A stretch of 20,000 nucleotides of DNA from an uncultured virus (IMG/VR IMGVR_UViG_3300006100_001445). Lineage: Duplodnaviria > Heunggongvirae > Uroviricota > Caudoviricetes. Where the stretch lies: IMG/VR virus record IMGVR_UViG_3300006100_001445, one strand, 5' to 3'. The notes below the pieces were generated by a model, which had not been told where the DNA came from, did no database searches, and saw only the letters and a program-made list of their open reading frames with translations. Position 1 is the stretch's first letter, and the number at the start of each line of letters is the position of its first letter. Shown here one piece after another: positions 11,654 through 19,998 of this stretch. A program made the position numbers and the translations under genes.

Positions 11654-12020
11654 CGAACAGACATCAGTACTTAGCTCCTACCCTTTCCTTTCTCACATCA
11701 CCTACGGCGGTAATGATTACATCGGCATCATACAAAATTCAGACGAAGTTATAACTACTCTTTACGATTTTGGACAACTGAAAGACACTGAAGTCAAGCG
11801 TTTATTCCTGAGCTTGGGGGAAACTTGGTGGTGGGAAAGCAATAGATTAATGCCGATCAATGTGTTTTTAAAACAGGATTGGGCAATATTCAAAGCGTGT
11901 CTACGTACCATGAACTCAAAAGACGTAGAAATTATTATGGGCCCGTATGTGAGCCTAAAAGAAATGGCCAGTAAACGTAGCAAGCGTAAATCAATTACGC
12001 TGGTACGAAAAATGCCCTAG
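11646..12020 (+). CDS. Hypothetical phage protein, 124 aa
   Basis: Start overlaps the endonuclease 3' end; GETWWWESNRLMPINVFL motif; stop overlaps the convergent mini-DnaE stop (CTAG). Confidence 0.8.
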   Translation: MNNEQTSVLSSYPFLSHITYGGNDYIGIIQNSDEVITTLYDFGQLKDTEVKRLFLSLGETWWWESNRLMPINVFLKQDWAIFKACLRTMNSKDVEIIMGPYVSLKEMASKRSKRKSITLVRKMP

Positions 12021-16712: not shown

Positions 16713-17878
16713 ATGTCTCGTCCTTTTTTTACATTCTTATTATACACATCATTTGTAAAATAAACAACCTTCTCTGCTGTCTGAATCCACACTTGACGAT
16801 CTCCGCCAAACAGCATACCTGCTGTACTGATCAACAAAGGAATATTGCCCACGGGAATTCTTGGTATTTTATTGGTGTATATCAAACGAGTATCTGCTGT
16901 TATTTGTTCTCGGTTGTTTAGGTTGGCCACTTGCTCTTTGTCAAAATATCCAATCATTTGCATTGTCAATCGGTTGCTTTGATCGGGTTCGTATACATAT
17001 ATGGGAAATCTATTGGTAACAGCTGCGTAGGCAATCAACTCTTGTACCTGATCCACTTGCGACCCGTTTCGATCTACTTTGACTTCTCTGTTGGTACACA
17101 AACTCCAAAACCTAGGACCGTGCTGTTTGATAACAGTTTCTTCAATAGCCGGATCAACTGTGTACCCCAGCAAGGGCGAATGATCAACCAGGCGCAGTAG
17201 ATTGTCAAGACCAAACCCACCAAGATTTGTGTCAACATACTCGATCAAACTGTTGGCAGCGTTTGCAATATGCAATTGGTCGTTGTGTTGTGTCAATTCA
17301 ATTCGGTAAGAATTTTTTTCTGCGGACAGAATCAAATCCATCAGATCCGATAAACTTTTGTCAATGACAAAATTGTTGTTCTTGCTAAAAGTGTATATCA
17401 GGTTCACATTGTATTCAGTCAAATCAGCTTGCCATACTCGAGCTTCTCTGTTGAAATGTATGCGGCCAGAGCTTTCACGACTTTCGGTTCTAATATGCTC
17501 AATAAGATTTTGATCGTACGGAAAACGTATTTTAATTAGGTTGTCTTCGACCCACACTCGTGTACTGCGATCGATGTTGCGAATGGGATTTCTAAATACT
17601 GGATTTGTTTTGACAGATTCTATATCTATCTTGTGTTTGTTTAATTGTCGCTCGTATTTTAATACCAATGCCACAGCCAAGGCCGATTGCTTGTCAGTGA
17701 ATCCAATGTTGTTACGTGCTTGCTCGGCAAAACTTTCAACAATTTTGACATCGTATCTGGCCAGGTTCAACGAACTAGCCGGCAGTTGAAAAATACTGTA
17801 GGCATTCTTGCCAGCGGCATCTCGAAAACCAGCAATAAACTCAATGTAATCTTCAATGTGTGGGTATGAGTATTTCAT
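16697..17878 (-). CDS. Hypothetical protein with an internal HARP-like segment, 393 aa
   Basis: Long ORF directly after a consensus promoter; contains IKIRFPYDQNLIEHIR...GRIHFNREARVW. Confidence 0.7.
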   Translation of the reverse strand: MKYSYPHIEDYIEFIAGFRDAAGKNAYSIFQLPASSLNLARYDVKIVESFAEQARNNIGFTDKQSALAVALVLKYERQLNKHKIDIESVKTNPVFRNPIRNIDRSTRVWVEDNLIKIRFPYDQNLIEHIRTESRESSGRIHFNREARVWQADLTEYNVNLIYTFSKNNNFVIDKSLSDLMDLILSAEKNSYRIELTQHNDQLHIANAANSLIEYVDTNLGGFGLDNLLRLVDHSPLLGYTVDPAIEETVIKQHGPRFWSLCTNREVKVDRNGSQVDQVQELIAYAAVTNRFPIYVYEPDQSNRLTMQMIGYFDKEQVANLNNREQITADTRLIYTNKIPRIPVGNIPLLISTAGMLFGGDRQVWIQTAEKVVYFTNDVYNKNVKKGRDICKLD

Positions 17879-17884
17879 ATGTGT

Positions 17885-17913
17885 ATTATACTGTATTTAA
17901 ACTGCAAAGTCAA
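17885..17913 (-). promoter_or_regulatory. Sigma70 consensus promoter (leaderless) with nested TAAATA
   Basis: TTGACT (17913-17908), 17 nt, TATAAT (17890-17885), then 6 nt to ATG 17878; TAAATA at 17899-17894. Confidence 0.8.
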
Positions 17914-17941
17914 AAAAATCCCCAGGTATTTCTACCCGGGG
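17912..17941 (-). terminator. Rho-independent terminator with GAAA tetraloop
   Basis: Minus strand CCCCGGGTA-GAAA-TACCTGGGG followed by A and T7. Confidence 0.88.
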
Positions 17942-17945
17942 CAAA

Positions 17946-17993
17946 CTGGCTTCGGGAGCCAGACTGTGATTCAGGAGCTAGATTGAATCACAG
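17946..17993 (-). other. Two additional hairpins in the 3' UTR (candidate structured RNA)
   Basis: Perfect 10-bp stem CTGTGATTCA/TGAATCACAG (17964-17973/17984-17993) and 6-bp stem CTGGCT/AGCCAG (17946-17951/17957-17962). Confidence 0.6.
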
Positions 17994-18563
17994 CGATAAA
18001 AAGTTTACAGGTTCCTTAAAAAATGTACAGGCCAAAACCAATCTGGGAAATTGTGTAGCCGACTGCATACGAATACTGTGTGGAATTTGACTGTTAAACA
18101 CCACCGGTTGCAACAATTCAAATCGTCCTACCAGTTCACACTTGCCAAGATCCACTGACTCTAGATCGTAATAGGCATTGCCAAACTTGTTGATAATCGG
18201 AGTCACTGAGTTAAAAATTTCTTCGGGTACACTATACCATTCGTTGTAACTGCCGGCAGTATTCAAAATGGGAAAATTTATTTTGGCAGTTACCGGCAAC
18301 TCGTCCACGTGCAATCCTACATCTTGGTTGTTATTGCATACTGTAACACTTACTTCACGCAACCTTAGGCCTAAGTCTCTGGTCCACTGAACCAACTCAG
18401 GAACTGCTCGTACATACTCTGCTGTATTCAGTTTGTTCCAAAGACTCAACTCGTCCAAATGATCAAAAAGTTCAGTCCGTGTTGTCAAGAACTCAACGGT
18501 TTTAGTTTGGATAGTAGACTGTAATACAGGATCACAGTCTACTGGTACAAACGGTTTAAGCAT
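17988..18563 (-). CDS. 2OG-Fe(II) oxygenase/cupin-fold-like protein, 191 aa
   Basis: GLHVD (HxD), INFPI, PVVFNSQIPHSI (distal His) and PRLVL (Arg); TAATG coupling at 18563. Confidence 0.65.
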   Translation of the reverse strand: MLKPFVPVDCDPVLQSTIQTKTVEFLTTRTELFDHLDELSLWNKLNTAEYVRAVPELVQWTRDLGLRLREVSVTVCNNNQDVGLHVDELPVTAKINFPILNTAGSYNEWYSVPEEIFNSVTPIINKFGNAYYDLESVDLGKCELVGRFELLQPVVFNSQIPHSIRMQSATQFPRLVLACTFFKEPVNFLSL

Positions 18564-19609
18564 TAAGCAGCTTTCATACAAGTAACTTGAGCCATAGCCT
18601 TCCATTTGAGCGGAAAGCTCTTACGTAAGTCTGCTACCTTGATTGCCATACGCAAGCTCATTTCACGGAATTTATTCTTGTTCTCTTCCAAGAACTCAAT
18701 GATTTCGTCTTGTACTGCTTGCTCAAAATCATACTCAGCAAACAACTCACCATCCTTGGCAATCTGCTTGATACGCAACACTTTGTCACGCATTGTGTCA
18801 AGAGTCAAGTCTAGGTAGTGACAACGTGATTGTAGTGCATCCAAGTGATCACGCAACTTCTGGCTTTTCATTTGATCGAACTTAAGGTTAGTGATAAAGA
18901 TCACTGAGCCGTTGAAGTTGAAGCTGTCCGGAACGCCTTCGCGACGCAACATATTGCTATCACTTAACCACGAAATCTTACGCTTCTTACCAGAGTCCAA
19001 AGCACCCTTCAGCAGGTTGAGTGCAACATCGTCAACAAGAATTGAGTCACAGTCGTCAAATACCAACACACAGTTTGAATCACTATACTTGTAAAGTGTA
19101 GTATACAAACCTAGGGCACTGGCACTACCTTTGACAACTTCGGCACGGAGACGCTTGCCAGAAATCTGGTCGAACAAACAAGCCTTCTCAACAATACGCT
19201 CTACACCGAACGACTTACCAACTCCTGGGGGACCTGATACAATCATTGCACGGATGTCGCCGTTGGTAGCGGCAGTGGCCATCTCGTCCAAAATTTCAAA
19301 ACGCTGACGAATACGTTCAATAACTTCTTCGTCACTCTCTTGTGCAGTTTCTAATGCCTGAGTTTCTTTGACCGGTGTATTACCTTGCTCAACAAACTCG
19401 GCTTCACTAACAAAATCATAATCGCTCATAGCGTCTACCTTGACACGGATTTCTTCTGGAAAGCCGGGGAAACGGCCGCTGTTTTTTACAGTCACATAAT
19501 TGCCTTTGGCAGTGGTTTTAAACTGTTCTACCAATTGGAAAACCTGACCGCTGACGTCTGTAGTGCGATAAGCACCACTTTTGATGCGAATAAAAGATAT
19601 GTTTGACAT
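18563..19609 (-). CDS. AAA+ ATPase, 348 aa
   Basis: Walker A GPPGVGKS, Walker B LVFDDCD, sensor-1 FITN, SRC arginine finger; AAGGAG RBS. Confidence 0.88.
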   Translation of the reverse strand: MSNISFIRIKSGAYRTTDVSGQVFQLVEQFKTTAKGNYVTVKNSGRFPGFPEEIRVKVDAMSDYDFVSEAEFVEQGNTPVKETQALETAQESDEEVIERIRQRFEILDEMATAATNGDIRAMIVSGPPGVGKSFGVERIVEKACLFDQISGKRLRAEVVKGSASALGLYTTLYKYSDSNCVLVFDDCDSILVDDVALNLLKGALDSGKKRKISWLSDSNMLRREGVPDSFNFNGSVIFITNLKFDQMKSQKLRDHLDALQSRCHYLDLTLDTMRDKVLRIKQIAKDGELFAEYDFEQAVQDEIIEFLEENKNKFREMSLRMAIKVADLRKSFPLKWKAMAQVTCMKAA

Positions 19610-19638
19610 ACTAGCTCCTTTTTTGATTTAATACAAGT

Positions 19639-19667
19639 ATTATACTATTTTGACAATTATAGGTCAA
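19639..19667 (-). promoter_or_regulatory. Sigma70 consensus early promoter
   Basis: TTGACC (19667-19662), 17 nt, TATAAT (19644-19639), followed by ACTTGTAT. Confidence 0.85.
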
Positions 19668-19960
19668 GCACCATAATATACTGCGTCTGCATCGGCAAGC
19701 TCTTCGGCCTGTTCCAACACATCAAAATCTGACTCCTCTACCACCCAACCTGCGGCACGAAGTTCATCGCGTCCGGCACGGGTCTCTTTCAAGCGATCCA
19801 TTTGATTGTGGATAGCATTGATCGAAGCTTCTAAATACTCACGACTACGCCATTGCTCAGGAGTAGCATAACGTGGACGAAAACCAAAAAAGTCTTTATG
19901 GAAATCGCTCAAATAACTTTGCAATTCTTCAACTGATAAATCTGCTAAATGGTTCTGCAT
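19664..19960 (-). CDS. Small early hypothetical protein, 98 aa
   Basis: AAGGAG RBS and own promoter; SDFHKDFFGFRPR motif; acidic C-terminus. Confidence 0.8.
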   Translation of the reverse strand: MQNHLADLSVEELQSYLSDFHKDFFGFRPRYATPEQWRSREYLEASINAIHNQMDRLKETRAGRDELRAAGWVVEESDFDVLEQAEELADADAVYYGA

Positions 19961-19989
19961 CGTTGCTCCTTGTTATTCACTATACAAGT

Positions 19990-19998
19990 ATTATAGCA
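19990..19998 (-). promoter_or_regulatory. Extended -10 early promoter element (-35 outside the window)
   Basis: TGcTATAAT followed by ACTTGTAT, identical downstream to the promoter at 19644. Confidence 0.7.

Follow-up and report, generated by a model that had tools for sequence, protein, structure and literature searches.

The 20,000-nucleotide (nt) stretch of viral DNA analysed here, hereafter the window, corresponds to positions 17265-37264, minus strand, of a single 157,933-base record of an uncultured member of the Caudoviricetes (IMG/VR IMGVR_UViG_3300006100_001445), rated ~43% complete. At the end of a transcription unit headed by an ATPase gene, the window carries a short hairpin that stands just upstream of an intrinsic terminator and has a loop complementary to that same ATPase gene's Shine-Dalgarno (SD) region. 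Among relatives the hairpin keeps its place at the 3' end of the unit, its stem covaries as an RNA of the gene strand, and the complementarity between loop and SD is retained and in part co-varies from clade to clade. On these comparative grounds we consider it probable that the hairpin is a 3' anti-SD element resembling that of the icaR messenger RNA (mRNA) of Staphylococcus aureus, and that its loop would pair with the ATPase SD and repress translation of the ATPase, acting either within one molecule (in cis) or between molecules (in trans).

The features on which this reading turns all lie on the minus strand of the window:

17964..17993, minus strand: hairpin 1, the conserved element that bears the anti-SD; perfect 10-base-pair (bp) stem
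17973..17981, minus strand: the anti-SD CUAGCUCCU, made of eight loop bases and the first base of the 3' arm
17946..17962, minus strand: hairpin 2, CUGGCU-CCCGA-AGCCAG; lineage-specific and outside the conserved element
17912..17941, minus strand: intrinsic terminator at the end of the ATPase unit; G+C-rich 9-bp stem (17941-17920), 4-nt loop and 7 U
19611..19619, minus strand: ATPase SD region AGGAGCUAG, the proposed target of the loop, in a short A-rich 5' untranslated region (UTR)
18563..19609, minus strand: AAA/P-loop ATPase of 348 amino acids (aa), first cistron; PF00004, phrog_1250

A preliminary description of the stretch had reported two hairpins and a terminator here, and all three are present on the minus strand where it placed them. 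The stem of hairpin 1 joins CTGTGATTCA (17993-17984) to TGAATCACAG (17973-17964) around the loop ATCTAGCTCC (17983-17974; as RNA, AUCUAGCUCC). The exact 9-nt complement that had been claimed also holds up, as CTAGCTCCT (17981-17973) is the reverse complement of AGGAGCTAG (19619-19611), which lies 1 nt 5' of the ATPase ATG. When the 106-nt stretch is folded, the prediction consists of exactly these three hairpins, with a minimum free energy of -39.3 kcal/mol (z = -5.3; none of 200 shuffled sequences equals it). No U tract follows hairpin 1, so it is not a terminator, and only the third hairpin qualifies as one; nor is a promoter-like site of its own predicted just 5' of hairpin 1. By our energy estimate the duplex between loop and SD would contribute -12.6 to -14.2 kcal/mol at an opening cost of ~3.3 on the 5' side and ~0-1.4 in the loop, for a net of about -9.4 kcal/mol. 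Comparison of the other terminators of this genome with their upstream SDs gave a longest complement of 7 nt, versus 9 nt here.

Conservation and co-variation among relatives

Relatives were collected through an ATPase search of viral contigs that gave 593 confirmed homologues, of which the best 80 (94-69% identity) were used. The resulting dataset of 82 non-duplicate loci comprises the window, 79 loci designated L004-L083 (without L008), L003 and L087; L001, L002, L084 and L085 were left out as identical to the window in this region, and L008 and L086 as belonging to the same contig as L003. In 63 of the 82 loci the motif (N)GCUCC lies unpaired just upstream of the terminator that ends the ATPase operon. 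At 60 of these a hairpin presents GCUCC in or at its loop, and in most the T-run of the terminator follows 20-44 nt further on. The hairpin is present in L010 as well, where the ATPase SD and start lie off the contig, while L058 and L062 carry the motif unpaired, with a hairpin immediately 3' of it; in L050, L057, L075 and L082 it can be read either way, as a hairpin loop or as lying 5' of a hairpin. The motif is absent from 19 loci, three of them with less than 850 nt of downstream DNA and 16 with ample downstream sequence (at least 3 kb). The element is single-copy in each genome, including the 158-kb record.

What is conserved is the structure and the loop core rather than the stem sequence: the 60 hairpins have 46 distinct stems, and loops of 8-25 nt. 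An alignment of 13 hairpins with 10-12-nt loops has changes on both sides at 9 of 10 pairs, with 95.4% of its cells paired as against 26-36% for slid partners, and 0 of 500 shuffles did as well. A first covariance model of the hairpin caught only this 10-12-nt-loop group (21 matches at E <=1, reverse-strand echoes included), and the hairpins with 14-25-nt loops, which could not be aligned by such a model, were analysed by script. Internal single mismatches flanked by Watson-Crick pairs in the stems comprise 10 G·U, no A·C and 2 other combinations, which argues for selection of the stem as an RNA of the gene strand rather than as an antisense RNA or a palindrome in the DNA.

Two other readings of the hairpin were tried and rejected. 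One took it for a CRP-like site or other operator, from its palindrome of the form TGTGA..TCACA, and fails on the stem sequence, which is not conserved. The other placed the function on the plus strand, where an SD-like loop is followed by TTG within a mechanical 76-aa open reading frame (ORF) at 17860-18090; it was set aside on two grounds, the acceptance of G·U but never of A·C in stems of the minus strand, and the location on that strand of the promoters, the terminator and the genes alike.

The hairpin keeps its place beside the terminator at distances from less than 60 nt (27 loci) up to 2357 nt past the ATPase stop codon. Among the 33 loci where this gap exceeds 60 nt, 28 have no terminator-like and 30 no promoter-like site within it. 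In 36 of the 60 loci the hairpin begins no more than 15 nt past the last stop codon, whichever gene is last. The preliminary description had treated the three hairpins as a unit, which is not supported: hairpin 2, with its GCUCC, is shared by the window and L003 alone, the second hairpin of L004 is unrelated to it, and at most loci no second hairpin is present.

The relation between loop and SD was searched from both ends. When the longest complement of the 23-nt SD window was sought in ~3.5 kb of downstream sequence, it was the flagged loop in 48 of 81 loci, and in L015, L018 and L062 the best site also fell on the motif and was missed by the filter. Conversely, when complements of the loop were ranked over a locus of ~8 kb, the ATPase SD came first alone in 32 of 60 loci and shared first place in 16. 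The anchored classes of loop and SD are the following:

loop CUAGCUCCU, ATPase SD AGGAGCUAG
loop UUAGCUCCU, ATPase SD AGGAGCUAA
loop GUUAGCUCCU, ATPase SD AGGAGCUAAC
loop UGGCUCCUU, ATPase SD AAGGAGCCA
loop GGUUGGCUCC, ATPase SD GGAGCCAACC
loop GCUCCUGUU, ATPase SD AACAGGAGC
loop UUGCUCC, ATPase SD GGAGCAA
loop UGUCUAGCUCCU, ATPase SD AGGAGC-C-UAGACA, with one bulge

In several clades the flanks of the loop track those of the ATPase SD at the same locus, for example as CUAGCUCC/GGAGCUAG and UUAGCUCC/GGAGCUAA, and in L082, a member of the GGAGCC clade, loop and SD have both gone back to UUAGCUCC/GGAGCUAA; the register in which loop and SD match also shifts between clades. Across 50 unique combinations, loops pair with their own SD over a mean of 8.64 bp at -15.6 kcal/mol and with foreign SDs over 7.38 bp at -13.6, a difference that 0 of 20000 permutations reach, in a test that ignores kinship and so overstates the case. 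A stricter comparison used 20 phylogenetically separate pairs differing in both loop and SD. The own partner gave the better match in 9 of them and the swapped one in 4, with 7 ties; the Wilcoxon test yields p = 0.013 on base pairs and p = 0.011 on energy, the wins amounting to 2-9 bp and the losses to 1-2 bp. When changes were placed on the ATPase tree, the loop followed the SD at the first flank position in 3 independent pairs, opposed it in 0 and was unchanged in 5; at the third flank position it followed in ~4 independent pairs, opposed in 0 and was unchanged in 1, each of these two tests being underpowered alone.

The core of the match is close to invariant, with GGAGC in the SD at 59 of 60 loci and GCUCC in the loop at all 60, although the search itself required NCUCC, so that only the G of the loop is informative. 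The exception is L014, whose loop matches GAGCUAGA, 3' of a GGAGU. The C after GGAG would not extend pairing with the tail of 16S rRNA and is not expected in a perfect SD; among crudely identified GGAG-type SDs of this genome it is present in only 22 of 63. At the 16 motif-less loci with at least 3 kb of downstream DNA, 9 SDs read GGAGU, GGAAG, GGAAC or GGAGA. The preliminary description had proposed that a loop not conserved, or not co-varying with its SD, in relatives would speak against the idea, and this comparison did not refute it: the pairing of a 3'-end anti-SD with the SD of the first gene stands at the comparative level, in the 63 of 82 loci with the motif and in the co-variation of the flanks, and what finds no support is a part for hairpin 2 or, as discussed below, for wider targets.

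More distant homologues were also inspected. In Aeromonas phage phiA8-29 and Vibrio phage VAP7, whose ATPases are ~35% identical, nothing comparable was found. Pseudomonas phage PA5oct (L106) has at ~2660-2672 an 8-nt complement (AGTAGCAT, SD side) of the SD and spacer region of its ATPase homologue; it lies ~20 nt past the ATPase stop in the 3' arm of a hairpin, that is, in a stem and not in a loop, and may be a chance match. A second conserved element of ~50 nt, absent from the window, was noticed among the loci of the main dataset: an invariant GCGTAA...GGCAATGTCAATAAG between complementary flanks that differ by locus. It stands just past the ATPase stop in loci without an anti-SD hairpin there (L021, L040, L049, L041, L061, L074, L036, L039, L027, L051 and L067) and also upstream of the hairpin in L016 and L037.

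The transcription unit and its surroundings

Three further features, again on the minus strand, delimit and fill the unit to which the hairpin belongs:

19639..19667, minus strand: sigma-70-like promoter of the ATPase unit; TTGACC, 17 nt, TATAAT, with 11 of 12 matches
17988..18605, minus strand: 205-aa ORF, a variable cargo gene without a family match
17876..17913, minus strand: next promoter, the boundary of the ATPase unit; TTGACT, 17 nt, TATAAT

The position of the sigma-70-like promoter directly 5' of the ATPase makes the ATPase the first gene of a unit starting there. By regular expression, such a promoter lies 27-52 nt upstream of the start in 71 of 80 loci, and in the remaining 9 the ATPase is preceded by a TATAAT-like hexamer whose -35 is weaker. 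The promoter belongs, together with the 5' UTR, to a cassette marked by TATAATACTTGTAT, of which the 158-kb record holds 5 copies, that of the ATPase among them. The copies are nearly identical and consist of TTGAC..., ~17 nt and TATAATACTTGTAT, followed by an A-rich leader and GGAG; their five positions in the record are 17270, 17621, 49990, 97680 and 99733, and those within the window lie at 19626-19644 and ~19982-19995 (minus strand). The initial transcribed sequence of the cassette is seen again upstream of the ATPase in many relatives, and the cassette may mark one temporal class of promoters.

By ATPase protein identity the nearest cultured phages are PA5oct (~40%) and Ackermannviridae of Vibrio and Aeromonas (~35%). 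Homologues in T4-like records are labelled 'hypothetical', 'thioredoxin' or '36.7 kDa protein', and among solved structures and curated families none names a function for the ATPase. The 205-aa ORF, whose start overlaps the end of the ATPase gene by 43 nt and whose TGA stop (17990-17988) sits within the 5' arm of hairpin 1, had been labelled an oxygenase. We find no support for that label, as searches of Pfam, PHROG and NCBIfam returned no matches, and among the loci compared the ORF is confined to the window's own group and L003. More generally, the interval between the ATPase gene and the homologue of the 393-aa ORF that follows the terminator ranges from 63 to 3081 nt, and its gene content differs by lineage, which identifies it as a hot spot for variable cargo. 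Since neither a terminator-like site nor a strong promoter-like site is predicted between the ATPase and the hairpins in the window, it is plausible that a single transcript takes in the ATPase, the 205-aa ORF and all three hairpins.

Directly after the terminator, the 393-aa ORF begins with an ATG (17878) 6 nt past the -10 hexamer of the next promoter, and it is probably translated from a leaderless mRNA, to judge by this spacing. A start 6-7 nt past a TATAAT-like -10 and without an SD recurs in most of the relatives displayed, so that the leaderless start looks conserved, and the unit headed by this ORF runs on into the gene of a UvsW-like helicase. Nearly all long ORFs of the window lie on the minus strand, in a replication region that encodes the UvsW-like helicase, a primase, a DnaB-like helicase and a piece of a polymerase. 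As relatives occur on contigs of up to 374 kb, the window is a piece of a large uncultured phage genome. A near-identity DNA search of a phage collection with the window found no match, and neither did Rfam 15 over the whole window at gathering score.

Possible modes of action and rival explanations

In the mechanism that we favour, an mRNA begun at the ATPase unit's own promoter would have a 5' UTR of ~25 nt, encode the ATPase and, in some lineages, extra cargo genes, and end in a two-part 3' module, an anti-SD loop hairpin with the intrinsic terminator directly after it. The loop, a GCUCC core with lineage-specific flanks, would base-pair with the SD region of the ATPase and block binding of the 30S ribosomal subunit, lowering ATPase synthesis. 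Its partner could be the SD of the same molecule, that of another copy of the mRNA, or one met by a stable 3' fragment.

It is tempting to go one step further, and we regard it as a possibility worth entertaining, though tentatively, that the unit is a self-limiting messenger. The loop, being transcribed last, would kiss the ribosome-binding site of the first cistron, so that a finished mRNA would shut off its first gene and leave the downstream cistrons free; alternatively, a stable 3' remnant could silence later copies. Such a switch could be coupled to the translation of the operon, as ribosomes terminating near the hairpin might melt it. The closeness of the hairpin to the last stop codon would allow this, but could be explained equally well by the compactness of the genome.

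Several observations weigh against a role for the loop as an anti-SD. The 9-mer is unremarkable within the window alone, where 4 matches with at most one mismatch compare with an expectation of 2.08 and at least as many arise in 31 of 200 shuffles, so that its significance comes only from its position, a loop apex facing the SD of a first gene, and from the relatives. Among these, the 16 loci that lack the element while having ample downstream DNA indicate that it is dispensable, and in 12 of 60 loci another site, mostly low-complexity and A-rich and in one clade, matches the loop better than the ATPase SD does. In a large clade with the loop UUUUG(U/A)UAGCUCCUUUU, the SD base after GGAGC drifts (U, C, G) with the loop unchanged, which leaves 5 of 8 independent pairs uncompensated; pairing there spans only 7-9 bp and leans on the A-rich/U-rich flank. 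Sign tests alone on the separate pairs are not significant (9 versus 4, p = 0.27; 12 versus 5, p = 0.14). At the ends of the loop-SD helices (n = 100) there are 10 G·U, 18 A·C and 72 other mismatches; G·U is thus not commoner than A·C, and the duplex has no strand-specific wobble signature. Finally, pairing of 8-9 nt within a 10-nt loop is topologically strained, and the energies given above come from a model that ignores loop topology.

A different use of the same loop, which we consider unlikely though the best of the alternatives, would be in a small RNA (sRNA) derived from the 3' end and acting in trans, with hairpin and terminator outlasting decay of the mRNA and the loop regulating several phage or host mRNAs, the ATPase being one target among them. 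The hairpin, the U-rich linker present at many loci and the terminator with its U tail resemble known bodies of 3'-derived sRNAs and have the likeness of an Hfq module. The genome itself offers candidate targets, since all 4 of its gene-strand GGAGCUA sites precede start codons, and two other genes of the record present 10 nt (99769) and 9 nt (147185) to the loop; these genes, which encode 76 aa and a glycine-rich, probably membrane, protein of 223 aa, have their sites at 99759 and 147176, outside the window. Against this, the closest large relative has GGAGCAG as the SD of its 99769 homologue, complementary over no more than 6 nt, and of the match at the 147185 gene one record keeps 8 nt and one G·U in its homologue while another keeps nothing. 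In five records of the GGAGCCAAC class, the extra loop-matching sites inspected on the gene strand lead into no start codon, one of them lying within a recognised gene, and the ATPase site is the only SD. Thus, in the own-genome candidates and these five records, no conserved complementarity to phage genes other than the parental one was found. The L069 group stands on the other side, as it carries the 10-mer AAACAGGAGC at 2-3 upstream sites, the ATPase SD included.

The preliminary description had extended control to other early genes through GGAGC sequences ahead of the starts at 19960 and 7931. Those sequences are indeed there, yet they share only the 5-nt core with the ATPase SD, and, with the two better candidates not kept in relatives, the wider claim is not borne out. 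The one consistent partner of the loop is the ATPase SD, which fits action on the parental mRNA, whether intramolecular or between copies or fragments.

Two side observations concern these sites. The fourth GGAGCTA of the genome, at 11664-11680 of the window (minus strand), lies 7 nt before the ATG of a 13-codon ORF and is possibly the start of a small ORF or nothing. In L069, L070, L072 and L081, AAACAGGAGC, which is complementary to the loop of that clade, occurs at 1-2 extra sites within 1 kb upstream of the ATPase SD; these may be the SDs of small upstream genes.

Less probable again is that the hairpin serves stability or processing, guarding the 3' end against exonucleases or binding a protein through its loop, with the likeness to an anti-SD incidental. 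Such a role would suit a hairpin that is always terminator-adjacent and at most loci follows the last stop codon so closely, a GCUCC core more constant than its flanks, and a clade that tolerates uncompensated changes in the SD. It leaves unexplained, however, why the flanks of the loop follow those of the ATPase SD in separate clades and why loci without the hairpin so frequently lose the C of GGAGC, and the terminator hairpin by itself is already a strong 3' block.

That the match is a property of the DNA, the 9-mers being ends of a recombination or mobile element that flank an ATPase cassette, or an operator for a protein, seems to us very improbable. In its favour, the copies form inverted repeats and change in concert, the mismatches at the helix ends do not favour a sense-strand RNA, and the interval between ATPase and hairpin is a hot spot for variable genes. 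Yet the 5' copy coincides in every case with the SD, normally spaced from a start codon, and the 3' copy always sits on a covarying stem that tolerates G·U and not A·C; the register of the match shifts between clades; the helicase/393-aa gene, wherever found, follows the ATPase on the same strand, with no inversion seen; and the repeats measure just 7-11 bp. A chance resemblance without function, which the 9-mer taken alone in a 20-kb window would allow, is scarcely credible in view of the comparative evidence as a whole, from conservation through stem covariation to the co-variation of loop and SD.

Known systems and significance

The closest parallel to the element is the icaR mRNA of Staphylococcus aureus. 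Its 3' UTR, several hundred nt long, carries the anti-SD motif UCCCCUG 260 nt past the stop codon, which pairs with the SD of the same mRNA, blocks formation of the initiation complex and creates a site for cleavage of the duplex by RNase III; in vitro, complex formation was regained with compensatory mutations, and the choice between cis and trans was left open (PMC3868564). The phage element shares with icaR an anti-SD at the 3' end, past the last stop codon, that is complementary to an SD on the same transcript (in the window over the exact 9 nt), and in both cases the action may be in cis or in trans. In contrast to icaR, one gene of one bacterium, it is phage-borne, has a different motif, occupies a short hairpin loop with the terminator right after it, and would act on the first cistron of a unit whose cargo varies. 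Where icaR has experimental support, the element here is known from natural covariation across many lineages.

Other systems resemble it in part. The 3'-UTR-derived sRNAs, such as CpxQ (cited in PMC8545117) and the sRNA from the prtV 3' UTR that acts on a CTXphi mRNA (PMC13250501), likewise have a conserved pairing sequence just 5' of the parental terminator and end in the terminator hairpin and U tail; they act in trans through a linear seed, whereas here the seed lies in a loop and the sole consistent target is the SD of the first gene of its own operon. S. aureus RNAIII and RsaE present anti-SDs in C-rich hairpin loops that pair with SDs and prevent initiation (PMC3868564). The hairpin loop carrying an anti-SD is common to both cases, but RNAIII and RsaE use UCCC motifs, are separate transcripts and have many targets, while the element described here has GCUCC(U), no predicted promoter of its own and one conserved target. 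Long-range pairing between the two ends of one mRNA has a counterpart in hbs of Bacillus subtilis, where the interaction of 5' and 3' UTRs concerns ribonuclease action and mRNA stability (PMC5737220). Among large phages, the noncoding RNAs recovered by Grad-seq of phiKZ (PMC8545117) and in 201phi2-1 (PMC11512511) are, like this one, structured and UTR-derived, or else intergenic; those described in the parts of these reports used here come, where UTR-derived, from the 5' side, have no assigned target and include no 3'-end anti-SD element. A limited literature search found no description of such an element in a phage.

Very few cases are on record in which the 3' end of a bacterial mRNA controls translation of that same mRNA, icaR, from a single species, being the main one. 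The element described here offers dozens of natural variants that act as compensatory 'mutants', in a compact module of hairpin and terminator. If the self-limiting messenger is real, it would be the first natural, covariation-supported case of 5'-3' closed-loop translational control in a bacterial virus. If the element itself is confirmed, its module would be a small portable part for self-limiting expression, and terminator-proximal hairpins, which usually go unannotated, would merit screening for complementarity to the start of their own operon. Its carriers are large environmental phages of a widespread group, which have it in their replication region; if the reading proposed here is correct, these phages would dose or time a replication-associated ATPase by means of anti-SD elements at the 3' end of its message.

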